This document shows, in pieces, positions 6,421 through 64,000 of a stretch of 64,000 nucleotides of DNA. The stretch's first letter is position 1. Every line of letters begins with the position of its first letter. Source of the DNA: Squalus acanthias (Eukaryota); contig CM059432.1 of the NCBI GenBank assembly GCA_030390025.1, forward strand, positions 11,780,001 to 11,844,000, in the 5' to 3' direction. The notes under the pieces are model-generated. The model was not told the DNA's origin, did no database searches, and saw only the letters and a list, made by a program, of their open reading frames with translations. A program made the position numbers and the translations under genes.

Positions 6421-6682
6421 GAGATACATACCCATTGCTCATCTGTAATTCAGAAATATCTGCTAATGTTTCGAATTTTCTGCGTGTGTGTGTGTGTGTG
6501 AGTTCCCCTTTGAGGCAATGAGTGGTGCCCATGTACCCGTTACCCGCCTTTCCTGATCTTATTTTGGAATGATTCTTACACCAACAACAACAAAAAAAAT
6601 ACAAATTAAAAACAAATGTGCTAACTGGCTTGTTAAAGAGAACTGTGAATGGTGAGCAGCTAATGTGCGACTTGTGTTACAG

Positions 6683-6820
6683 GAGGAGTTCTGCTATCCT
6701 GTGGAATGCCTGGCACTGACTGTGGAGGAAGTGATGCACATCCGACAGGTCTTAGTGAAAGCAGAACTCGAGAAGTACCAGCAGTACAAAGATGTCTACA
6801 CGGCCCTGAAGAAGGGAAAG
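6683..6820 (+). CDS. SPIRE1: SPIRE1 exon, Spir-box region ([46 protein letters not shown])
   Basis: ttacag|GAG ... AAG|gttggt; 138 nt, phase 0-0; near-identical to vertebrate SPIRE1. Confidence 0.97.
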
Positions 6821-7865: not shown

Positions 7866-9118
7866 TAGGGTTGCAAAATTCCTGGAATTTTTAAAAGAGG
7901 AAACTTTCCATGGGAATTTTTGGGAATTTATGGGAATTTTGAGTTTTTTTGCACACTGATGGTTTTTGTCTCTGACCCTTATGTTATCTTTGTCATCAAA
8001 ATAGACATACTGTTCCATACAAATAAAAACAGGCTTTCAAAACTTTATTTAGGTTATAATTCCCTTCCACCAGGTATGTGCACTGATATGCTTGCATGAT
8101 TCCCATATCCCGTCCCCATTCCAAAGATCTTGCTTGGTAGAGAACTTTGCCAGACTTCCCAGAACTTCGCCCACGTCCAGATTGAGGTGGCGAGAGAGGG
8201 TAGAAATCACACTGTAAGCGCTGTTGATCTGTTCTCCAGAAAGTATTGGTCTCCCAACATGCTTTGTGTCCAGCATGTATGCTGCAGCATGAATCGGCTT
8301 GACACAAAATTCTTGACGCGTCTGTATGAATTGAACAATTGCCTTCTCCTCTGCTTTGAGCAGTAGGGATGTGGGTAGGGCAATGCTGATTTGTTCTTTT
8401 AAATCAGCAAAAAGCCTGAGAACATCTGACAAGACAGCGTCATCTCCTTCAATCTGAGCAATTGCAGATGCTACTGGTGAGAGTAGTTTAAGGCTGCTAA
8501 CCACTCTCTCCCAAAACACATCATCCAGCAGTATTTTCTTGATGGTGGTTTCCATATCCCCAGACTGGGATATTGCCATTTCTTGCAGCGACTCCTTACC
8601 CTCCAGAAGGCTGTTGTACATTATGACAACGCCACCCCATCTGACGGTAAACGTGGCATTGTTCTATGCAGAGAAATAAAGGGCATTCGTCTCTGTGTCA
8701 AACTGCGGTTGATCAGCACGATTGCAACAGGCCAGGGTGAGTAAATTTTTCCTGATGCTCCATGTGATGGAAGCATGACCTGTGCACGCACGACGCTACA
8801 TCACCAATAGAGGGAGCTAATCGCTCATCCACTCATCCAACCAATCGGGACACATTTGTTCACAGTCACACACAAAACTTGTAATTATTAAAACAAGCCA
8901 AGTAAGAAGATAAACATATATTGATTAAGAAATTCCTTAATAATTAAGATTCCACCTCTGTTAGTAATTTTAAGAGAGGACCTGTAAAAAAAAAAGAAAG
9001 ACAAAAAAAAACCAATAATATGCTAGCATGTGCTTTTTTGGGCAAAATTCCCAAGCTAAACTTCCTGTGGAAAATTTCCGGAAATTTACCGGAAACTTTC
9101 CACCCCTTTGCAACCCCA
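7866..9118 (-). mobile_element. Internally deleted hAT-superfamily DNA transposon nested in the CR1
   Basis: TIRs tagggttgcaaa (7866-7877) and tttgcaacccca (9107-9118); 8-bp TSD cctctgtg (7858-7865, 9119-9126); ORF 8049..8621 is a transposase-like fragment (RWG upstream, FW..V...L, PIHAAAYMLD, WW). Confidence 0.9.
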
Positions 9119-11933
9119 CCTCTGTGTAAAGAAATTTCTTCTCATCTCAGTCCTGAATGGCCTACCCTTTATCCTGAGGCTGTGGCCCCTGGTTCTAGAC
9201 TCCCCAGCCAAGGGAAACATTCTCCCAGCATCCACCCTATCAAGCTCTGTAATAATTTTGTATGCTTCAATGAGATCCCCTCTCATTCTTCTGAATTCAA
9301 GAGAATACAGGCCTAGTTTACTCAATCTCTTCTCATACGACAGTCCCGCCATCCCAGGAATCAATCTCGTGAATCTTCGTTGCACTCCCTCTATGGCAAG
9401 TATATCCTTCCTTAGGTAAGGAGACCAAAATTGTACACAGTACTCCAGGTGTGGTCTCACCAAGGCCCTATATAATTGGAGTAAGATTTCTTTACTCCTG
9501 TACTCAAATCCTCTTGTAATGAAGGCCAGCATACCATTTGCCTTCCTAATGGCTTGCTGCACCTGCACATTCACTTTCAGTGACTCATGTACAAGGACAC
9601 CCAGGTCCCTTTGAGCATCTGCATTCCCCAATCTTTCACCATTGAGGAAATGACTCTGCCTTTCTGTTTTTTCTACCAAAGTGGATAACTTCACATTTAT
9701 CCACATTATATTCCATCTGCCATGTTCTTACCCACTCACTGAGCCTGTTGAGATCCCCTTGAAGCCTCTTCACATCCTGTTTGCAACTGATACTGCCACC
9801 TAGCTTTGTATCATCAGCAAATTTGGAAATGTTACATTTAGTCCCCTCATCCAAATCATTGATATAGATTGTGAATAGCTGGGGCCCAAGCACCGATCCT
9901 TGCGGTACCCCACTAGTTACAGCCTGCCATCCTGAAAAAGACCCGTTTATCCCTACTCTTTGTTTTCTGTCTGTTAACCAATTCTCAGTCCATGCTAGTA
10001 TATTACCCCCAATTCCATGTGCCCTAACTTTGTTCACCAACCTCTTGTGTGGGACCTTATTGAAGGCCTTCTGAAAATCCAGATACACCACATCTACCGG
10101 TTTCCCTTTGTCTACTCCACTAGTTACATCCTCAAAGAACTCCAATAGGTTTGTTAAACAGGATTTCCCTTTCATAAATCCATGTTGACTCTGCCCAATC
10201 TTACTATTAGTTTCTAAGTGCCCAGTTATTGCATCCTTTATAATAGATTCCAGCATTTTCCCAACTACTGATGTGAGGCTAACAGGTCTGTAGTTCCCCG
10301 TTTTCTCTCTCCCTCCTTTCTTAAATAGCGGGGTTACATTTGCTATCCTCCAATCTGCAGGAACCGTTCCAGAATCTATAGAATTTTGGAAGATGACAAC
10401 CAATGCGTCCACTATCTCAATGGCCACCTCTTTCAAAACCCTAGGATGTAGGTCATCTGGTCCTTGGGATTTATCGACTTTTAGTCCCATTAATTTTGCT
10501 AGTACTGTTGTTTTACTAATAATAATTTCTTTAAGTTCCTCATTCTCGCCACACCCTTGGTTTTCTCGTATTTCTTGGAGGTTTTTTGTGTCTTCCTCCG
10601 TGAAGACAGAAACAAAGTAGTTATTTAATTTCTCTGCCATTTCCTCATTCCTCATTATAAATTCTCCCATCTCTGCCTGTAAAGGACCTACATTTACCTT
10701 CGCCAGTCTTTTCCTTTTCACATGCCTATAGAAGCTTTTACAATCTGTTTTTATATTTTTCGCTAGTTTGTGCTCATATTCCATTTTCCCTTTCTTTATC
10801 AATTTCTTGGTCCCCCTTTGCTGATTTCTAAAAAGATCCCAATCCTCAGGCTGACCGCTTTTTCTGGCAACTTTATAACCTTCCTCCTTTGACTTAATAC
10901 TAGCTTTAATTTCTTTTGTTAGCCATGGTTGGATCACTTTTCCTTTTAGGTTTTTATGCCCTAGAGGAATATATGTTTGTTGCAAATTATGCATTATTTC
11001 CTTGAATGTTAGCCATTCTATGTCTACCTTCATACCTTTTAGTGTAGTCTCCCAATTTACCATGGCCAACTTCTCCCTCATACCCTTGTAGTTTCCTCTG
11101 TTTAGATTGAAGACCTTAGTTTCAGATTGGACTACATCACTCTCAAACTTAATATAAAATTCAATCATATTATGGTCACTTGTCCCTAAAGGCCTCTTTA
11201 CAACAAGATTATTGATTAGCCCTTTCTCATTACACAGTACCAGATCCAGAATAGCCTGTTCCCTGGTTGGTTCCTCCACATACTGATCCAGGAAACCATC
11301 TCGCATGCATTCCAAGAATTCGTCCTCCACACCATAAGTGGTAATTTGATTTGCCCAGTCAATATGTAGATTAAAGTCCCCCATGATTACCGTATTGCCC
11401 TTGTTACATGCACTTCTAATCTCTTGATTGATACTGTGCCCTACATTACCACTACTGTTTGGTGGCCTATACAGAACTCCCACCAATGTTTCCCGCCCTT
11501 TGCTGTTTCTTAGCTCCACCCAAACTGATTCCAGTTCTACATCACGATCTGCCAAGCCAGGATCTTTTATCTCTACCGTACCGATCTCATCCCTTATTAA
11601 CAGCAATACGCCACCTCCATTTCCTTTTTGTCTGTCCTTCCTAAATGTTGAGTAACCTGGAATATTCAGTTCCCAGCTTTGGTTACCCTGCAACCATGTC
11701 TCTGTAATGGCAATTACATCATACCCATTTACTTCTGTTAGTGCCATTAATTCATGCGCCTTGTTGCGAATGCTACGTGCATTTAGATAAAGTGCCTTCA
11801 ACTTTGCCTGTTTAATATTTTTCCGCACTTTGACCCTCTTTACTGTTGGCCTTTGTTTCTGCTCCCTACTAGTTTTGCTGACTACTTTTCTAACTTGCAC
11901 TTCCAGCTTTGTTTCTCTCCGTTCTGGGCCCAC
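9119..11933 (-). pseudogene. CR1 ORF2: APE endonuclease plus reverse transcriptase (one frameshift near 9650)
   Basis: YLNARS, ITETW, YRPP, GDFN and SDHN endonuclease motifs; [22 protein letters not shown] and FADD RT motifs. Confidence 0.95.
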
Positions 11934-11959
11934 ACTTAGGTTCCCAGCCCCCTGACAAA

Positions 11960-12914
11960 CTAGTTTAAATCCTTCCGAACAGCACTAGCAAACCCCACTG
12001 TGAGGATATTGGTCCCGCTTCTGTCGAGGTGTAACCCGTCCAGCTTGTACAGGTCCCACCTTCCCCAGAATCGGTCCCAATGCCTCAGGAATTTAAATCC
12101 CTCCCTCCTACACCATCTCTCCAGCCACGCATTCATCTGGTCTATTCTCCTATTTCTGCTCTCGCTAGCACATGGCACTGGGAGTAATCCTGAGATTACT
12201 ACCTTTGAGGTCCTGCTTTTTAATATATTTTTTACTAGCTCCCTATATTCTGCTTGCAGGGCCTCGTCCCTCTTTCTACCTATGTTGTTGGTACCAATAT
12301 GGACCATGACCTCTGGCTGTTCACCCTCCCCCTTCAGAATGTCCTGCAGCCGCTCAGTGTCATCCTTGACCCTGGCACCAGGGAGGCAACATACCATCCT
12401 GGAGTCACGTCTGCGGCCACAGAAACGTTTATCTGTTCCCCTTACGATAGAATCCCCTATCACTATTGCTCTCCCACTCTTTTTCCTCCCCTCCTGTGCA
12501 GCTGAGCCACTCGTAGTGCCACGGACTTGGCTCTTGCTGCATTCCCCTGAGAAACCATCTCCCCCAGCAGTATCCGAAATGGAAAATCTGTTGGGAGAGG
12601 GAGATGGACCCAGGGGACTCCTGCACTAACTTCCTAGTTCTTTTACTGTGTCTGGCGGTCACCCATTCCCTGTCTGCCTGTGCACTCTTTACCTGCGGTG
12701 TGACCACCTCGTTAAACGTGCTATCCACGAAGATCTCAGCCTCGCGGATGCTCCACAGTGACTCCAACCGCAACTCCAGCTCCAAAACGCGGATTTCAAG
12801 TAGCTGCAGCTGGAGACACTTCCTGCACACGTGTTCGCCCTGGACACCGAAAGTGTCCCTGAATTCCCACATAGCACAGGAAGAGCACTCCACGCTGCGG
12901 AGCTGCCCTACCAT
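11960..12914 (-). pseudogene. CR1 ORF1: CxxC...HxCxxC zinc finger, coiled coil, SGNH/GDSL esterase-like domain (frameshifted)
   Basis: VECSSC...HVCRKC; IGDSIVRG, HIGTNN and DGLHL esterase blocks. Confidence 0.88.
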
Positions 12915-13169
12915 GTCCTACCCTTAATTTACACCCTTTACTTCCTCTAAATTAAAGAATCTTAAATACACTAGGGACCTTACTTCACTTTACACACTAC
13001 TTACTCTAAACTAGAGACCTTACTTTTACTTTAACGACTGGACTGTAGAAATAATCACCAGGTCCTACTTACCAATCAGCTCCTTCCCTGGTTGTGACGT
13101 CACTTTAGCTGTTTTTTGCAGTCATCATTTTACCAATTTTGGAGTGCCAATAAAAAAAAAGAAAAACAA

Positions 13170-15906: not shown

Positions 15907-16766
15907 ACCGCGCCGTGTGAGTGAATTGGAACGAGGCGGGGAAGAGAGTGGACCAGCAGCAGCTCTGATGAAACTTTTGCGCTTCATCATATGTCACAAT
16001 AGAAAGGATCAGTGACTCGGGAGCATTACACGCCACAAAAATAACATTCTAATAATATACATTATGCAATAGAAATTACTGAGCGATGAATGGTTCATTG
16101 CTACGGTGCAATTTTGGCTATTCATTTCTGCACATTTGGAGGCTGTTAAATCAAAGTTTAAACACAGCAGTTTTACTGAAACCCAGCTGGGAGCAACAGC
16201 CGGAAATATCCCGGAATAATTAGCATGCGATGCCAAATACTGGGTAAAAGCAGGAACCAGTACTTCCTGTATAATCCTCGGTGCACACTTTCACCCAACA
16301 GATGCAGGGTCTGCTGTAACACACAGTGAAATAAACCCACTGTCATTACATTTCAGCCCCTGGAGTACAACAGCACCTCAGTTCAAATCATGTGATTCAG
16401 CATTGGCAATCTGTCATCATCATTGACACCTCCCATGTCTTTTTGGGTGTTTTGTTTCTGCTGAATGAGCCCATTCTCTCCACAAACCCCAGATGTATCT
16501 TATTAATAAAAAACGTTTTGTGTCCTTATGAATAAATGAATGCCTGTAGAGTTCCCACTCACTTTAACCATGGTATGGGATCATTCAGCTCCCAGACCAT
16601 GAGAAAGAAAGCAGCCATACAAGTCTGATCCCCAGGCTCTGTCGTGCACGCTGTGTCAGACCAGAAACGTACAACTCGATTCAACTCTACACCCACCCTC
16701 CTTCTACTGACCTGACACAGCTGTCCAGCCTCCCTGTTCTTGGCCCGACCTGACTCTGAAAACTCG

Positions 16767-17280
16767 GGGCTCCTGGCCCAATGTGACTCGACAACCTCCG
16801 GGCTCCTGGCCCAATGTAGCTCTGAACCTCCGGGCTCCTGGCCCAATGTGACTCTGAACCTCCGGGCTCCTGGCCCAATGTGACTCTGAACCTCCGGGCT
16901 CCTGGCCCAATGTGACTCTGAACCTCCGGGCTCCTGGCCCAATGTGACTCTGAACCTCCGGGCTCCTGGCCCAATGTGACTCTGAACCTCCGGGCTCCTG
17001 GCCCAATGTGACTCTGAACCTTCGAGCTCCTGGCCCAATGTGACTCTGAACCTCCGGGCTCCTGGCCCAATGTAGCTCTGAACCTCCGGGCTCCTGGCCC
17101 AATGTGACTCTGAACCTCCGGGCTCCTGGCCCAATGTGACTCTGAACCTCCGGACTCCTGGCCCAATGTGACTCTGAACCTCCGGGCTCCTGGCCCAATG
17201 TGACTCTGAACCTCCGGGCTCCTGGCCCAATGTGACTCTGAACCTCCGGGCTCCTGGCCCAATGTGACTCTACAACCTCC
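16767..17280. repeat. 32-bp minisatellite, about 16 copies (gggctcctggcccaatgtgactctgaacctcc)
   Basis: Head-to-tail units with few variants; explains the three overlapping repetitive minus-strand ORFs (32-aa period = 3 units). Confidence 0.97.
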
Positions 17281-17597
17281 ACGCTCCCAGGCTGACCTTG
17301 CACCTTGACCTTGATTTTTTTTTGCACACCGACCCAATGCTGCAGTCAGCCCATCACCATCTGTGTTATAATAACATAATATTTATAATAATAAGGTTGG
17401 AGTGTGGCACAGTCATGTGTCGGCAAAGATAGCAGGTTTCCTTCCCTGAAGGACATTAGTGAACATTTCTGACAATCTAATATCTTTCATGGTCCTTTCA
17501 CAAATGACTAGAGTTATCGAATTCAAGTTGCCACAGTGGAATTATGAACTCATAACAACTACACTACCATTCCGGCATAATCTCAAGGTTAACTACT

Positions 17598-22343: not shown

Positions 22344-22489
22344 ATGCGACTACCCTCCAAACCATACAGCAATCTTCCCATCTTTTCCTTGGGACCATCA
22401 GCCTTGCCAAAAGAGGGGAAAGCAATAAAGCCAGAGAAGCTGTCAGGCAGCCGGCGTCGGCACGATAGTCAACACAAGTGTCTAGTCAG
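22344..22489 (+). CDS. SPIRE1: SPIRE1 exon ([49 protein letters not shown])
   Basis: ttttgcggtttag|ATG ... AG|gtacga; 146 nt, phase 0-2, after a 118-nt intron. Confidence 0.95.
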
Positions 22490-23099
22490 GTACGAAACAC
22501 CCTGCCGCCTCCCCGAGAGGCCAAAGCATTTCAGTCATTTTGTCGGAGTTGCCTGATCAATTAAAACAAAGGCAAAATACTGCGGATGCTGGAAATCTGA
22601 AATAAAAAGAGAAAATGCTGGAAACACTCAGCAGGCCAGGCAGCATCTGTGGAGAGAGAGAACTGATGAGTTTTGATGGCAGGTCATTGACCTGAAACGT
22701 TAACTCTGTTTCTCTCTCCACAGATGCTGCCCGACCTGCAGAGTATTTCCAGCACTTTCTCTTTTTATCATTGCTTGGTCAATTCTTGGAGTTTTAGCAA
22801 CAATTTTACATTTCTATCGCGCTCGCTACATATCAGAGCGATGTACATGGCAGCGGAGAGTGACAGGGCGCCAAGCGGGCAGGGACAACAAGGACGGGAA
22901 GAAGTTCAGCAAGGACAAAAGCATGGTTGAGGAAGAAGCTCTTACGGAGGTCGTTGGAAGGCAGGGAGGGAGGTGCCAAAGTGGAGATGCTGAAAGAGGG
23001 AGTTGCAGAGGGCAGGAGCAAGGTGGCTGAAGAGGTGAAACAGAGAGAGCAGGAAATGAGACATGCGTTGGATGTTGGAGACTGTGGATGTTGGGCCAA

Positions 23100-26489: not shown

Positions 26490-29130
26490 AATTGGACACA
26501 CGAAATAGGAGCAGGATCAGGCTACACGGTCCCTGGGCCCGCTACGCTACCCACAGGGCCATGACCGATCCGAACCTAAACTCATGTCCAAATTCCTGCC
26601 CGCTCCCCGTAACCCTTAATTCCCTTTACTTCTAGGAAACTGTCTATTTCTGTTTTAAATTTATTTAATGATGTAGCTTCTACAGCTTTTTGGGGCAGCA
26701 TATTCCATGGACCTACCACCCTCTGAGTGAAGTAGTTCCTTCTCATCTCAGTTTTGAAAGAGCAGCCCCTTATTCTAAGACTATGCCTCCTAGTTCTAGT
26801 TTCACCCATCATCCGGAACATCCTCCCCGCATCCACCCGATCCAACCCCTTCACAATCTTATATGTTTCAATAAGATCGCCTCTCATTCTTCTGAACTCC
26901 AATGAGTATAGTCCCAATCTACCCAACCTCTCCTCATATGTCCATCCCCTCATCCCCGGGATTAATCGAGTGAACCTTCTTTGTACTGACTCGAGAGCAA
27001 GTATGTCTTTTCTTAAGTATGGACACCAAAACTGTATGCAGTATTCCAGGTGCGGTCTCACCAATACCCTGTACAACTGAAGCAATACCTCCCTATTTTT
27101 ATATTCTATCCCCCTAGCAATGAAAGCCAACATTCCATTGGCCTTCTTAATCACTTGCTGCACCTGCATACTAACCTTTTGAGTTTCGTGCACCAGGACC
27201 CCCAGATCCCTTTGTACTTTAGTACTTTCCAGTTTCTTGCCATTAAGATAATAACTTGCTCTACTATTTTTCCTGCCAAAGTGCATAACCTCACACTTTC
27301 CAGTATTGTATTCCATCTGCCAAATCTCTGCCCACTTACTTAGCCTGTCTATGTCCCCTTGCAGATTTTTTATGTCCTCCTCACTCACTACTTTCCCTCC
27401 CATCTTAGTATCATCTGCGAACTTTGATATGTTACACTCGGTCCCCTCCTCCAAATCGTTAATATAGATTGTAAAGAGTTGGGGACCCAGCACTGACCCC
27501 TGCGGAACACCACTAGTTACTGATTGCCAGTCTGAGAATGAACCATTTATCCCAACTCTCTGCCTTCTGTTAGATAGCCAATCCTCTATCCATGCCAGAA
27601 TATTACCCCCAATCCCGTGATTTTTTATCTTAAGCAATAATCTTTTGTGTGGCACCTTGTCAAATGCCTTTTGGAAGTCTAAATACACCACATCCTTTGG
27701 TTCCCCTTTATCCACCCTGTATGTTACTTCCTCAAAGAACTCCAGCAAATTTGTCAAACATGACTTCCCCTTCATAAAACCATGCTGACTTTGCGGTCTA
27801 TAGTTTCGAGCCTTCTGTCTACTGCCCTTTTTAAATAAGGGTGTTACATTAGCAGTTTTCCAGTCTGCCGGGATCTTTGCTGAGTCCAGGGAGTTTTGGA
27901 AAATTATTACCAATGCATCCACAATCCCTACCGCCACTTCCCTCAAGACCCTAGGATGTAAGCCATCAGGTCCAGGTGATTTATCCGCCTTGAGTCCCAT
28001 TATTTTACCGAGTACCACTTCCTTAGTGATTTTGATCGTGTTTAGCTCCTCTCCCCCTATAGCCCCCTGTTTGTCCAGTGTTGGGATATTCTTAGTGTCC
28101 TCTACTGTAAAGACTGATACAAAATATCCATTCAGTGTATTTGCCATCGCCATATTTCCCACCATTAATTTCCCGGTCTCATCCTCTAAGGGACCAACAT
28201 TTACTTTAGCCACCCTTTTTCTTTTTATATAACTATAAAAACTCTTACTATCTGTTTTTATATTTTTTGCTAATTTACTTTCATAATCTATCTTCCCTTT
28301 CTTAATCAATCTTTTTGTTATTTTTTGCTATCTTTTAAAGTTTTCCCAATCCTCTATCCTCCCACTAGATTTGGCTACCTCATAACCCCTTGTTTTTAGT
28401 CGAATACTATCCTTAATTTCTTTACTTAGCCACGGATGACTGTCTTTTCTTTTACACCCTTTTCTTCTCAGTGGAATATATATTTTTTGGAAGTTGTAAA
28501 ATAACTCCTTAAATGTACACCACTGATCATGTATCGTCTTACCCTTTAATCTATTTTCCCAATCCACTCTACTTAATTCCGCTCGCATACCTTCATAGTC
28601 TCCTTTATTCAAGCTTAGCACGCTTGTTTGAGATCCAACCTTCTCACCCTCTAATTGAATATGGAATTCAACCATGTTATGGTCACTCATTCCAAGGGGA
28701 TCCTTTACTAGGACATTTTTAATTAATCCTGTCTCGTTACACAGGACCAGATCTAAGGTTGCTTGCCCCCTGGTCGGTTCAGTTACATACTGCTCAAGAA
28801 ACCCATCCCTAATACACTCAATGAACTCATCCTCAAGGCAGCCCTGCCCAATTTGATTTGTCCAATTAATATGATAGTTAAAATCCCCCATAATTAAAGA
28901 TGTTCACTTATTACAAGCCTCAACTATTTCCTGATTGATACTCCGTCCAACAGAGTTGCAACTGTTCGGAAGCCTATAGACTACACCCACTAGTGTTTTT
29001 TTCCCCTTATTATTCCTTATCTCCACCCAAACTGTTTCATTATCCTGATCTTTTGACCCAATATCATTTCTCTGTATTACAGTGATTCCTTCCTTTATTA
29101 ACATAGCCACCCCACCTCCCCTTCCTTCCA
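26490..29130 (-). mobile_element. 5'-truncated CR1 LINE (partial endonuclease plus RT)
   Basis: ORFs 28904..29176, 28328..28891 and 26582..28309 (575 aa). Confidence 0.93.
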
Positions 29131-33190: not shown

Positions 33191-33458
33191 ACTGCCATCA
33201 ATGTCCAAATCTTCTGAGAAGTCAACCGATAACCTGGAGTTTCCCAAAGAGCTGATGGAGGACTGGAGCACGATGGAGGTTTGTGTTGACTGTAAGAAGT
33301 TCATTTCCGAAATCATAAGCTCCAGTCGACGGAGCCTTGTCCTGGCGAACAAGCGCGCCAGGTTAAAACGGAAAACCCAGTCCTTTTATATGTCCTCGAC
33401 AAGTACGTCAGAGTTTCGACTGGCAGCACCCAAGGAGCGAACTATCAAAGAGGTTTAG
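33191..33458 (+). CDS. SPIRE1: SPIRE1 last coding exon ([10 protein letters not shown]...[52 protein letters not shown]...ERTIKEV*)
   Basis: tctttcacag|A CTG, phase 2; conserved SPIRE1 C-terminus; TAG at 33456-33458. Confidence 0.97.
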
Positions 33459-49080: not shown

Positions 49081-49382
49081 TCAATTTGCTACATTACTTT
49101 TGGCTACTGTCTTTCTTTTGTTGACTGTTCTGTATGTACCTTCTTTCTCCTCGCATTCACTTTCCTCATTCTCTTCTTCCAGCTCCTTCTCCTTGTCATC
49201 ATCTTCATCGCTGAATTCTTCCACTACTGTGAACGTATTTCTGTCTCCAACAGTCATATTTCTCAATTTGGATCGGACAATTTCTATAGCAGTTTCCACT
49301 TGGATGGCTTCCGTGCTACTTGTGCCCATTTCACTGGAAGTGCCGCACATGTGAGACTTGGCGGTCACATCCAGAACCTTTC
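49081..49382 (-). CDS. Exon of uncharacterised gene, RHIM-like motif 2 plus acidic tail (GKVLDVTAK...AIEIVRSKLRNMTVGDRNTFTVVEEFSDEDDDKEKELEEENEESECEEKEG...VAN*)
   Basis: Minus strand: ttctctgattag|GA AAG GTT; phase 1 matches the previous exon and the frame of ORF 49081..49368; TGA at 49083-49081; possible internal donor AAG|gtacat after 49140. Confidence 0.78.
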
Positions 49383-50437
49383 CTAATCAGAGAATTGAGC
49401 CAAGGTCAATGATTAGACACACACTCAAGAAAAATATAGACAACTGCTGCTAACCAAATCAGGATGCCAGAAATAAATGAATGCTTCAAAGAAAAGAAAA
49501 TCACAAAGGGATTTAATTTTCTCTGGTTTTTTTTTAGCGCAATGATTAACTTTTTTGCGTAAAATTCCTTTCTGCATTACAGTTGTTATCCCGTTTATTT
49601 AAAGCAGGTGAACGACAGCATTGAAATAACACAGTAATTTTACATGAACACATTCAGCAGTGCCCTACCAGAGGAAACGTACTCCCTTAATCTATCCAGT
49701 TCAGCCAAGTAACTAGGTAATCTAAAAGAAAACTAGTTTTCTCCTAACCATTTCCTATGTGCTGAGTATAATTGATGGTTAGCGATTTATACTCTTTCAA
49801 TGATACCCATCAAATTCTAGCCTCACAGGACAATGTTGCCTATGGGGATCTGGCCACTTCACATTGATGTTGTCTAAATTTAAACATCATAAGAAAAGAT
49901 GTCAGGCCACCTCAACTGCTTTTAATTCATTTTAAGTACATAAGAACATAAGAAATAGGAGCAGGAGTCGGCCATACAGCCCTTCGAGCCTGCTCCGCCA
50001 TTCAATAAGATCATGGCTGATCTTCGACCTCAACTCCACTTTCCTGCACTATCCCCATATCCCTTGATTCCCTTAGAGTCCAGAAATCTATCGATCTCAG
50101 CCTTGAATCCACTCCACGACTGAGCATTCACAGCCCTCTGGGGTGGAGAATTCCAAAGATTCACAACCCTTTGAGTGAAGAAATTTCTTCTCATCGCAGT
50201 TCCTAAATGGCCGACCCCTTATCCTGAGACTGTGGCCCCTAGTGCTAGACTCTCCAACCAGGGGATTTTATATTATTCTCATTTGATTATGACAGTTGAC
50301 TAAATTAAATGGTACAGACTGTAAAGAGCTCCTTTTTAGCTCAGAGATATAACCATGGACCAGCAATAAAAGCTCATTGTTTTAATCTCAGATTGAAGAA
50401 ATAAAGAACGCAACATTCAGGCAAAGAGTCCACGTAC

Positions 50438-50602
50438 CATGTTCTGTGTTTGTACTCGTTGCTGGCTCCACAAAGTTATCTGAGTCGGATAACGACATAG
50501 TCGTCATAATGGACACATTGTTGTTAGAACCAAAGATGCAATTGTTTAGACTTGAGTTGCAGATGCAGATCTTGCATATTACTGGAGACTGGAACTGTCC
50601 TG
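50438..50602 (-). CDS. Exon of uncharacterised gene, RHIM-like motif 1 (AGQFQSPVICKICICNSSLNNCIFGSNNNVSIMTTMSLSDSDNFVEPATSTNTEH-G)
   Basis: Minus strand: atgtttcttttttcctag|CA GGA ... CAT G|gtacgt; 165 nt, phase 1-1, open frame; unique non-TE sequence. Confidence 0.78.
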
Positions 50603-59732: not shown

Positions 59733-62627
59733 ACAAAATCAAAATACTGCAGATGCTGGAAATCTGAAAAAGAAACAGAAAATGCTGGGAACACTCAGCA
59801 GGTCAGGCAGCATCTGTGGAGAGAGAAACAGAGTTAACGTGTCAGGTTGATGACCTTTCGTCAGAACTGGAAAAAGTTAGAGTTGTAACAGGTTTTAAGC
59901 AGAGGCAGAGGCAGGGAAAGGGGGGAGGGGAGGAAAGAACAAAAGGGAAGATCTGTAAAGGCAGAAGGAGATGGTAATGGGACTAGTAAAGAAAGAAAAG
60001 CTAAGTCTAGAAGAGGTGTAAATGGGAATGGCAGAATCATCAACAGCTGCCATCTGAAAAAATAGGGGCAGAGGTTATGGTCTGAAATTGTTGAACTCGA
60101 TGTTGAGTCCAGAAGGCTGTAATCGAAAGATGAGGTGCTGTAATCGAAAGATGAGGTGCTGTTCCTCGCGCTTACGTTGAGCTTCGTTGGAACAGTGTAA
60201 AAGGCCGAGGACAGAGAGGTTAGAGTGGGAGTGGAGCGAAGAATTAAAGTGACAGGCGACCGGAAGCTCAGGGTCATGCTTACGGATGGAACGGATGTGT
60301 TCCGCAAACCGGTCACCCAATCTGCGTTTAGCCTTCCCAATGTAGAGGAGACCGCATCGTGAGCAGTGAATACAGTATACTAAATTGCAAGAAGTACAAG
60401 TAAATCGCTGTTTCACCTGGAAGGAGTGTTTGGGGCCCTGGACAGTGGGAAGGGAGGAGGTAAAAGGGCAGGTGTTACATCTCCTGCGCTTGCACGGGAA
60501 GGTGCCGTGGGAAGGGGAAGGAGTTTTGAGGGTGATTGAGGAGTGGACCAGGGTGTTGCGGAGGGAATGGTCCCTTCGGAATGCTGATTCGGGAAGGGAG
60601 CGGAAGATGTGTTTGGTGGGATCACGCTGGAGGTGGCGGAAATGGCGGACGATGATCCATTGAATGTAGAGGTTGGTGGGGTGAAAGGTGAGGACAAGGG
60701 GAATCCTATCGTGGTTCTGGGAGGGAGGGGAAGGGGTGAGAGCAGAAGTGCGGGAAATGGAACGGACACGGTTGAGGGCCATGTCAACCACGGTAGAGGG
60801 GAATCCTCGGTTGAGGAAAAAGGAAGACATATCAGAAGCACTGATATGGAAGGTGGCATCATCAGAACAGATGCGGTGGAGACGGAGGAACTGGGAGAAT
60901 AGAGTCCTTAAAGGAAGCGGGGTAGGAGGAAGTGTAGTCCAGGTATATATTAATGATCTAGACAAGGGAACTAGATGTAATATCTCCAAGTTTGCAGATG
61001 ACACAAAACTGGGTGGGCGTGTGTGCTGCGAGGAGGATACCGAGAAACTCCAGGATGATTTGGACAGGTTGGGTGATTGGGCAGAAGCGTGGCAGATGCA
61101 ATATAACGTGGATAAATGCGAGGTTATCCACTTTGGTGTCAAAAACAGAAAGGCAGATTATTATCTGAATGGCAATAGATTGGGAGAAGGGGAAGTGCAA
61201 CGAGACCTGGGTGTCCTTGTGCACCAGTCGCTGAAGGTAAGCATGCAGGTGCAGCAGGCGGTTAAGAAGGCAAATGGTATGTTGGCCTTCATAGCGAGAG
61301 GGTTTGAGTACAGGAACAAGGATGTCTTGCTGCAGTTGTACAGGGCCTTGGTGAGACCACACCTTGAGTACTGTGTGCAATTTTGGTCACCTTATCTGAG
61401 GAAGGATGTTCTTGCCATGGAAGGAGTTCAGCGAAGATTCACAAGGCTGATACCTGGGATGGCAGGAATGACGTATGAAGAGAGATTGGGTCGATTGGGC
61501 TTACACTTGCTGGAGTTTAGAAGAATGAGAGGGGATCTTATTGAAACTTATAAAATTCTGACAGGACAGGACAAACTAGATGCAGGAAGGATGTTCCCGA
61601 TGGTCGGGGAGTCCAGAACCAGGGGTCACAGTCTAAGGATAAGGGGTAAGCCATTTAGGACAGAAATGAGGAGGAATTTCTTCACCCAGAGAGTGGTGAA
61701 CCTGTGGAATTCTCTGCCACAGAAGGCAGTAGAGGCCAATTCATTAAATAGATTCAAGAAGGAGTTGGATATATTTCTTAAGGCTAAAGGGATATGGGGA
61801 GAAAGCAGGTACAGGGTACTGAATTTGGATGATCAGCCATGATCGCATTGAATGGCGGAGCAGGCTAGAGGGGCCAAATGGCCTACTCCTGCTCCTATCT
61901 TCTATGATTCTAGGTAGCTGTGGGAGTCAGTGGGCTTATAGTGGATGTTTGTCAATAGCCTATCCCCAGAAATGGTGACAGAGAAGTCGAGGAAGGGAAG
62001 GGAAGAGTCGGAGATGGACCATGTGAAGGTGAGGGAAAGGTGGAAATTGGAAAAAAAGTGAAAGAAATTTTCTAGTTCAGGGTGAGAGCAGGAAACGGCA
62101 CCAATACAGTCATCAATATACTGGAAAAAGAGGTGAGGGAGGGAGCCTGAGTAGGAGTGGAACAAAGAATGTTCCACATATCCCACGAAAAGGCAGGCAT
62201 AGCTAGGGCCCATGCAGGTTCCCATAGCAACACCTTTAATTTGGAGGAAGTGGAATCAAAGGAGAAGTTGTTCAATGTGAGAACATGTTCAGCTAGGCGG
62301 AGTAGGGTGGCGGTGGATGGGGACTGGTTGTGCCTCTGTTCAAGGAAGAAGCGGAGCGCTCTCAGGCCATCCTGGTGGGGGATGGAGGTGTAGAGGGATT
62401 GGACGTCCGTAGTGAAAAGGAGGCGGTTGGGGTCGGGAAACTGGAAACTGTTAAAGTGGCGGAGGGCGTCGGAAGAGTCGCGGATGTAGGTGGGAAGAGA
62501 CTGGACAAGGGGAGAAAAAAGAGAGTTGAGATAGGAAGAAATCAGTTCCATGGGGCAAGAACAGGCTGAAATGATGGGTCTACCAGGGCAGTCCTGTTTG
62601 TGGATCTTGGGAAGGAGGTAGAAACGG
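59733..62627 (-). mobile_element. Penelope-like retroelement (RT plus GIY-YIG endonuclease), 5'-truncated, split by a CR1 insertion
   Basis: RT motifs DVQSLYTSIP, MGTCMGPSYA, YIDD and PFLD (61902-62551); GIY-YIG NLVYCIHCSRCGLLYIG...RLGDRFAEH...GLN (60075-60420); direct terminal repeat at about 59349-59620. Confidence 0.92.
60946..61911 (+). mobile_element. 5'-truncated CR1 nested in the Penelope element
   Basis: Starts at YINDLD, ends in ctatgattct tail; aggta duplicated at 60941-60945 and 61912-61916. Confidence 0.92.
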
Positions 62628-64000
62628 TATATATATATATATATTGTTAGCTCAATGTCAATTTAGCAGTGCAGTTTGAATATCTGATGGTATTGACTTT
62701 AGATATTGGTAAAATGTTCATTTTTGCGTACTTTATTTACTCAATAATTAGAGAAAGATGAAACTGCTGTTTCATTAGCTTACCAATGGTGATTGATTAA
62801 TTGTGACATTAATTGGGGATCGAGTGGGAAAGTGGAGTTGAGGTAGAAGATCAGCCATGATCTTATTGAATGGCGGAGCAGGCTCAAAGGACCGTATGGC
62901 CGACTCCTGCTCCTAATTCTTAAGTTTTTATGAAATACCAAAGAGCCTACTCAGATCAGAACACCATAGAAATATAGAATGTTACAGCATTCGGGTCAAG
63001 TCTGCATCAGTATTTCTCCACGTGAGCCACCGAGTTCAATCATACTCTCCTGCTCAGTCCCCTGAACCAGTAATATTCCTCTGTTTCAAGCAACTAATTC
63101 TCTTTTTAAACAACTTATAGAATCTGCTTCAACAACAGTGCATGACTGAATTTCACAATCTAACAACCTCTGTGCAAAGAATTTTATCAAACCTGCCCTT
63201 TAATTGTTTTGTGATCATCTTAAGTTTACGCCTTGCCGTTACCATCTCGCTAACCAGTGGAAACAATCTCACTATTTATCTTATCAGAACCCTTCATAAT
63301 CTTGAAGACCTCTATCCGTTCACCCCTTAACATTATCAGCACGAGTCTAAAAGCCCTAAATAAGAACATAAGAAGTAAGAGCAGGAGTCGGCCATACAGC
63401 CCCTCGAGCCTGCTCCGCCATTCAATAAGATCATGGCTGATCATCCACCTCAACTCCACTTTCCTGCCCGATCCCCATATCCCTTGATTTCCCTAGAGTC
63501 CAAAAATCTATCTATCTCAGCCTTGAATATACTCAATGACTCAGCATCCACAGCCCTCTGGGGCAGAGAATTCCAAAGATTCACAACCCTTTGAGTGAAG
63601 AAATTCTTCCTCATCTCAGTCTTAAATGGCCGACCCCTTATCCTGAGACTGTGCCCCCTAGTTCTAGACACTCCAGCCCAGGGGAAACAACCTCTCAGCC
63701 TCTACCCTGTCCTAACTTTCTCTTCAAAACTGTAAAGCCCTCATCCATGGTAACATCCTAAATGAATCTACGCTACACCTTTTCCATTGCTTTTATACCC
63801 TTCCTTTAATGAGGTGCCCACAACTGTACATAATAGTGCACCTGAAGACGAAGGCCTTGCACAAGTTTAACATTACTTTCTTGTTTTTGTATGTTATGCC
63901 TCTAGATACTATTTTGAGGAATTGGTGGGATGTTATTATCGTCGATTAAAAACTGGCTGGATTCCCATAAGCAGAAAGTGGTTATCGATGGTTGCGGATC

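Follow-up and report, generated by a model that had tools for sequence, protein, structure and literature searches.

Our analysis of the window, the whole 64,000-nucleotide stretch of Squalus acanthias DNA under study, identified predicted exons of the shark orthologue of si:dkey-29h14.10, covering its 3′ half; the full protein has roughly 270 residues. Sequence comparison indicates a layout of CARD, Ser/Pro linker, RHIM-like motif 1, spacer, RHIM-like motif 2 and acidic tail. By profile comparison, and with moderate strength, the two fish motifs appear to be of the same non-canonical, two-residue-longer subtype as the later RHIMs of ZBP1. The original prediction of a ZBP1 paralogue survives in these C-terminal motifs, which are of the later ZBP1 type, but a plain paralogue is excluded because the N-terminus is a CARD, not Zalpha; a C-terminal half shared with ZBP1, with the N-terminal module swapped, is possible. 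The small and so far unstudied protein si:dkey-29h14.10 may thus have been overlooked as an adaptor in cell death, related to the signalling half of ZBP1.

Exons of the shark gene and the CARD of its relatives

The part of the gene that lies in the window comprises the following features.

57106-57050, minus strand: Ser/Pro linker exon right after the CARD, 57 nt, phase 1-1, located by tblastn of relatives and AG/GT context
53924-53871, minus strand: Ser/Pro linker exon, 54 nt, phase 1-1, located by tblastn of relatives and AG/GT context
50602-50438, minus strand: exon A, 165 nt with AG/GT boundaries, a phase 1-1 cassette with a tandem (NAGNAG) acceptor
50570-50505, minus strand: RHIM-like motif 1, long-spacer type, nearly uncharged, core CIFG, ICICNSSLNNCIFGSNNNVSIM, in exon A
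49382-49081, minus strand: exon B, the last coding exon, phase 1 at entry, stop TGA at 49083-49081
49287-49222, minus strand: RHIM-like motif 2, long-spacer type, charged, core MTVG, IEIVRSKLRNMTVGDRNTFTVV, in exon B
49221-49141, minus strand: acidic tail, directly C-terminal of motif 2, conserved in the family

Of 25 candidates, a search with exon A matched 13 proteins, which come exclusively from sharks and rays and are 69–96 % identical; several of them carry the name si:dkey-29h14.10, and the relatives are CARD proteins. A profile search gave 22 chondrichthyan homologues, with a CARD in 21, the exception being a CARD-less isoform. In the orthologues, as distinct from the window DNA, the CARD (PF00619) scored above the Pfam cut-off in 10/10 and 20/20 relatives. 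The family CARD is closest in sequence and fold to those of NLRC4, cIAP1, ICEBERG and caspase-1, and a model of it fitted known CARDs with an rmsd of about 1 Å over 83–88 residues, at an identity of 19–24 % only. The family proteins contain no enzyme or sensor domain. The gene model is already public as an uncharacterised CARD protein. Database names such as caspase-1 and BIRC3-like on four members (P0009, P0010, P0015 and P0036) are CARD-driven mislabels, these proteins having neither a protease nor a BIR domain, and a Pristiophorus protein (P0061) has two tandem divergent CARD-like domains and is uncharacterised.

Neither tblastn nor profile scans detected a CARD in the 64-kb window, and the CARD exon is predicted to lie upstream, beyond base 64000. 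Linker exon 57106-57050 was 63–84 % identical to relatives by tblastn, and the residues of both linker exons are those found directly after the CARD in the relatives. A 39-nt candidate exon at 58999-58962 matched no relative. The original prediction looked for Zalpha domains upstream, and a full ZBP1 paralogue of this kind would suit the motif type and the paralogon, the shark gene's own 5′ exons lying outside the window. Yet the chondrichthyan homologues have the CARD in 21 of 22 cases and Zalpha in none, so that half of what the prediction itself had named as counter-evidence, an upstream domain foreign to ZBP1, is what was found. With the window linker exons matching the residues next to that CARD, a Zalpha-bearing paralogue is largely refuted, and we regard it as extremely improbable.

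Splicing of the two motif exons was compared with annotated isoforms and with contigs. Three sharks have annotated isoforms (P0015-P0017) that lack precisely exon A, with the reading frame kept. Contigs from three studies (X1, X3 and X8), whose RNA status is a guess, no listed run being on record as RNA, follow the window as far as 49381, next to the exon B acceptor, where they pass into other sequence, and show 0, 2 and 10 differences from it over 184, 242 and 242 bases, respectively. Among the contig matches listed there was no joint of exon A to exon B, and X9 had no piece at 49381. The end of exon B, at 49140-49081 on the minus strand, is out of frame relative to relatives: four extra bases near 49140, a tandem TACA that also makes a GT, cause the last 19 residues to differ. 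In this segment the second frame fits the Pristiophorus ending and the third frame the Heptranchias ending, and the X3 and X8 matches end at 49140. The frame shift may be a private variant, an assembly error or an alternative donor.

The window is shark-like in character and rich in repeats, with 52 % of it unique by self-BLAST. A near-complete LINE occupies 9636-12917 on the minus strand; its 782-aa endonuclease/reverse transcriptase frame follows an ORF1 with a GDSL esterase domain, and further reverse transcriptase pieces were seen at 26582-28327, along with many short LINE copies. A Penelope-like element at 60075-62662 (minus strand), with a weak GIY-YIG match and RT-like frames, is split by a LINE fragment; a minisatellite with a 32 bp unit lies at 16751-17287 (16.7 copies, 94 % matches), and a 204-aa open frame at 8049-8663 (minus strand) resembles, by eye, a DNA-transposase fragment, with no Pfam match.

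The motifs and the later RHIMs of ZBP1

Two motifs of 22 residues were located on the minus strand, each in its own exon entered in phase 1 (exons A and B), as had been predicted. Their gapless alignment was likewise upheld, the family profiles aligning without gaps at an HH probability of 94 %. The best ungapped 22-residue match between exons A and B scored 30 in BLOSUM62, against 17.9 ± 4.4 for shuffled sequences, of which 3/300 scored as high, and nucleotide identity between the motifs was 27/66. The original prediction read the common phase as a sign of exon duplication. Phase 1 is common to the whole gene, and it was rejected as evidence of duplication by itself because both motif-free linker exons are also phase 1-1; that part of the proposal fell, whereas the count of motifs in lamprey and jawed fish, given below, fits it.

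The Pfam RHIM model (PF12721) matched neither exon A nor exon B, and none of the family members in sets of 10 and 20; the same model also misses the later motifs of ZBP1, and on gharial ZBP1 it found the first motif only (E 0.54). Neither shark motif has the canonical V/I-Q-V/I-G tetrad. The family motifs do have the invariant Gly of the RHIM type, the following Asn and an alternating apolar strand in a disordered context. In motif 1, Ile at −11 from the core Gly is conserved in 28/28 proteins and Ser at −8 in 26/28; in motif 2, Ser at −8 is conserved in 25/26, two cyclostome rows without the Gly having been left out of the motif 2 counts. Asn occupies +3 in 20/28 (motif 1) and 20/26 (motif 2), with apolar residues at +5/+7. 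Charged residues average 0.9 in motif 1 vs 3.6 in motif 2, the latter being higher in 23 of the 26 proteins. AlphaFold2 modelling of an orthologue gave three strands for each motif amid sequence that is disordered by pLDDT, with values of about 76–90 for the motif 1 strands.

That the motifs are of the later ZBP1 type was borne out by profile–profile comparison, by spacing and by a library-wide hmmsearch. A chondrichthyan profile run over 1.84 billion representative proteins gave 59 matches at E 0.001, and the only outside ones that matched through the motif region were ZBP1 proteins, from gharial at E 3.4e-4 and from newt at E 4.4e-4; a CARD-less shark isoform was the sole other match with its best stretch outside the CARD. 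With a broad 28-sequence profile, six ZBP1 sequences from five species scored E 6e-11 to 6e-4 (values scaled to library size, the whole-library search having used the chondrichthyan profile) and, with the acidic tail removed, 5e-9 to 9e-3. Masking the motifs abolished all ZBP1 score. A shark-only profile left two of the six sequences non-significant.

In profile–profile comparison of 25-residue windows anchored on the Gly, both fish motifs aligned gaplessly with ZBP1 motifs B, C and D at 88–97 %, vs 67–68 % with motif A; the second to fourth ZBP1 motifs gave 93–98 % among themselves. No column shuffle (0/60) reached any of the eight scores, those for the first motif included. The fish motifs and the later ZBP1 motifs share a spacing of Ile −11, Ser −8 and Leu/Val −6 before the core Gly, as against Ile −9, Ser −6 and Gln −2 in the first ZBP1 motif. 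Gln was found at −2 in 5/5 ZBP1 A motifs, and the shark cores CIFG and MTVG lack it. In the reverse direction, a profile of the last ZBP1 motif ranked the two exons first and second of 1631 window pieces, at weak E values of 0.32 and 1.2, and two of five ZBP1 motif profiles missed both exons.

The ZBP1 proteins of crocodilians and newt (P0070, P0102-P0105) have four RHIM-like motifs, one more than is described for human. An acidic stretch also follows their last motif, and RHIM-A is skipped in frame in newt ZBP1 isoform X3, where the junction residues are all encoded by codons starting with G, compatible with phase 1 or 0. A two-sequence profile search for shark ZBP1 returned 7 proteins, all crocodilian or newt, and is too insensitive to show absence.

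The likeness could instead be a convergence of Asn/Ser-rich beta repeats, with the motifs forming a small intramolecular beta-roll or binding a globular partner and having no part in amyloid signalling. Motifs of 22 residues hold little information, the ZBP1 scores include large composition-bias terms (12–41 bits), and a 25-column motif tree, too short to trust, gave no resolution, motif 1 clustering and motif 2 mixing with ZBP1 B/C/D. The sole fold matches to a CARD-less model were four weak chains of beta-repeat type (VIA-align, Z 2.1–2.5); Foldseek gave none for this model, and ESM Atlas gave no usable match for the motif region. Searches of PDB sequences with the family and with motif 1 found no RHIM or HET-s chain, and neither did a newt RHIM-A control, so this search was powerless. 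However, no other beta-repeat protein was reached through the motif region at E 0.001 among the 1.84 billion, and the spacing, the terminal acidic tail and the cassette-exon behaviour are all as in ZBP1. The in-frame loss of one motif would also disrupt an intramolecular fold, and we consider convergence quite unlikely.

Family range, paralogon and origin

Taxonomy was checked for 26 family matches, 23 of them named, with several further matches outside this count. The named holders are sturgeons, gar, bowfin, bichir, coelacanth, lungfish, eels, bonytongues, herring relatives, a minnow, catfishes, a smelt, a mudminnow, a skate, a lamprey and a hagfish. From lamprey to lungfish only the CARD and the two motifs are kept, and the linkers drift. 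No tetrapod or spiny-rayed fish was found among the 23 named representatives, which is consistent with the predicted loss in mammals and, as an inference from absence, suggests that tetrapods have lost the gene. Two motifs are present in sharks, basal ray-finned fish, many teleosts, coelacanth and lungfish, and one each in the lamprey and hagfish proteins. The step from a single motif in lamprey to a pair in jawed fish would fit a duplication of the motif exon at the base of the jawed vertebrates. Scored with a profile built without cyclostomes, the lamprey motif reached 18.7 bits and was placed with motif 1, and the hagfish motif stayed under 1 bit; the membership of hagfish is uncertain, its motif not being recovered by a profile that lacks hagfish. 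The CARD tree joined the family and the cyclostomes at 56/69 support only, in a grouping that includes an unrelated long branch.

The gene has a convergent neighbour in the window, recognised from its open reading frames.

33192-33458, plus strand: last coding exon of the neighbour, with further exons near 6671-6820 and 22344-22556

We take these exons to belong to a SPIRE gene (SPIRE1 or an ohnologue), of which they would form the 3′ portion. The searches made, Pfam and ESM Atlas among them, gave no confirming match for the SPIRE name, with no usable ESM Atlas match for the neighbour exon. Human ZBP1 lies at 20q13.31, and the last species column of the paralogon table used below is presumably human, judging from its coordinates. 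In the portion of that table drawn on (Lamb 2021, PMC8040251), SPIRE1 is assigned to quad D of paralogon 10, and chromosome 20 genes at 50–61 Mb in the last species column to quad C, in which a SPIRE1L is also present. The claim that the SPIRE1 block and human 20q belong to one paralogon is thus supported. The gar orthologue is on a 44-Mb chromosome, and the quad C gar rows in the same portion reach only 15 Mb (PMC8040251); the size of the gar chromosome indirectly favours quad D.

An excerpt of a survey that includes sharks, coelacanth and lungfish gives ZBP1 as tetrapod-only and absent from all fish, and notes four RHIM proteins in humans and an abrupt appearance of ZBP1 in tetrapods (PMC12119088), while a review, in the extract used, lists cartilaginous fish as holders of ZBP1 (PMC13610683). 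A shared origin with ZBP1 through a swap of the N-terminus would be plausible because the species ranges are near-complementary and the blocks are sisters. We tentatively propose, at somewhat under even likelihood, that an ancestral vertebrate CARD-RHIM gene, which lamprey still has, doubled its motif exon in jawed vertebrates, that the sister in the 20q paralogon became ZBP1 by exchanging its CARD exon for Zalpha exons and acquiring a canonical RHIM, and that the CARD copy was lost in tetrapods. If this is true, the fish CARD-RHIM gene would be the source of the signalling half of ZBP1. The parts of the literature on ZBP1 origin that were retrieved state no source for its tandem motifs and draw no link to a CARD-RHIM protein. 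A CARD protein with ZBP1-type motifs, ranging from lamprey to lungfish and putatively placed in the sister paralogon, offers a testable origin for ZBP1.

Possible signalling role and comparison with known systems

We give about an even chance to the protein being an adaptor in which a CARD and tandem RHIM-like motifs couple amyloid-type stacking to CARD signalling, its C-terminal half being common with ZBP1. The two motifs would stack alternately, neutral rung on charged rung, into a HET-s-like two-rung cross-beta polymer, an arrangement that the original prediction had raised as an alternative; the stack would cluster the CARDs, and these could nucleate a partner that itself has a CARD, of the caspase-1/ASC/NLR or cIAP/RIPK2 type. 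Skipping of exon A would leave the charged motif alone and might weaken self-assembly. A signal entering at the motifs and leaving through the CARD is slightly favoured because the two-copy protein is the receiver in the HET-s system, and the opposite direction, in which a CARD filament would seed a RHIM amyloid, has almost the same likelihood. In the pages consulted, Kajava 2014 (PMC4262963) argues that alternating stacks are favoured when motifs are charged, and likens tandem copies to HET-s. According to the sections used, RIPK3 requires the V/I-Q-V/I-G tetrad (PMC12119088), and in ZBP1 it is RHIM-A, with its Q tetrad, and not B or C, that is indispensable for RIPK1/3 recruitment (bioRxiv 2025.06.06.658343). 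Direct recruitment of RIPK1/3 (the necrosome) by the fish protein is doubtful, given that it lacks the Q tetrad and that ZBP1 cannot do without RHIM-A.

The main rival reading is that the protein acts as a decoy or brake, with a catalytically empty CARD (ICEBERG/COP-like) and imperfect RHIMs capping caspase-1/ASC filaments or, in the manner of Pirk in the Imd pathway, poisoning RIPK1/RIPK3/TRIF amyloids. Such a role, which we hold to be fairly unlikely, accords with a family that has no enzyme or sensor domain, a CARD resembling ICEBERG and caspase-1, and non-canonical motifs only. The gene is, however, single-copy and kept from lamprey to lungfish, unlike CARD-only decoys, which are young and lineage-restricted. 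The reports cited, as excerpted, point both ways: Pirk is a RHIM-like inhibitor (PMC4262963), and mouse ZBP1 without RHIM-B, RHIM-C and the tail is constitutively active, whereas human RHIM-B and -C promote necroptosis, their mutation costing 40–50 % (both bioRxiv 2025.06.06.658343).

If the origin proposed above holds, the fish protein would be a fifth type of vertebrate RHIM protein, linking amyloid signalling directly to CARD/caspase signalling. It could also be a missing link from necroptotic amyloids to inflammasome/caspase CARDs in fish. It would also provide a construct made by nature for following the little-understood RHIM-B/C subtype where no RHIM-A is present, and the existence of a zebrafish gene name makes knockout and imaging directly feasible. 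The name dkey-29h14.10 was not met in the full-text literature searched, a scope outside which subscription papers and supplementary gene lists fall, and no report there combined RHIM-like motifs, a CARD and amyloid in zebrafish. Fish RHIM proteins are mentioned, unnamed in the part consulted, by Kajava 2014 (PMC4262963), and may include si:dkey-29h14.10.

Compared with known systems, the fish protein shares with ZBP1 the tandem, long-spacer, non-canonical motifs of RHIM-B/C and later type, the disordered spacers, the acidic end after the last motif and a motif exon that can be skipped in frame. Unlike ZBP1, it has a CARD in place of two Zalpha domains, no canonical RHIM-A and two motifs as opposed to three or four. 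The helical domain of HET-s is HeLo, and Imd and RIPK1 have a C-terminal death domain, whereas the CARD of the fish protein is N-terminal. From HET-s it further differs in a spacer of about 55 residues, with no sequence or fold match to HET-s found, and from Imd, RIPK1 and Pirk in having two motifs. As excerpted, PMC4262963 describes HET-s as a single chain whose two motifs are alike but unequal, with a flexible loop and an attached death-related helical domain, as in the fish protein, and in Drosophila Imd, the RIPK1 C-terminus and Pirk a comparable enzyme-free arrangement that ties a RHIM-like motif to a death fold. The fish range also contrasts with that of ZBP1, reported in the excerpt as tetrapod-only (PMC12119088). 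The combination of CARD and RHIM is likewise reported for bivalves and the bivalve-iridovirus protein BiIV1_006R (PMC12452177, in the part used); unlike that group, which was compared by description, the fish family had no molluscan or viral proteins among its named library matches. The CARD is like those of ICEBERG, NLRC4, caspase-1 and cIAP1 in sequence and fold, and, unlike CARD-only proteins, the fish protein adds a conserved motif pair and an acidic tail. Adaptors that join a death fold to a RHIM are a known kind, to which the fish protein adds a CARD with two ZBP1-type motifs.
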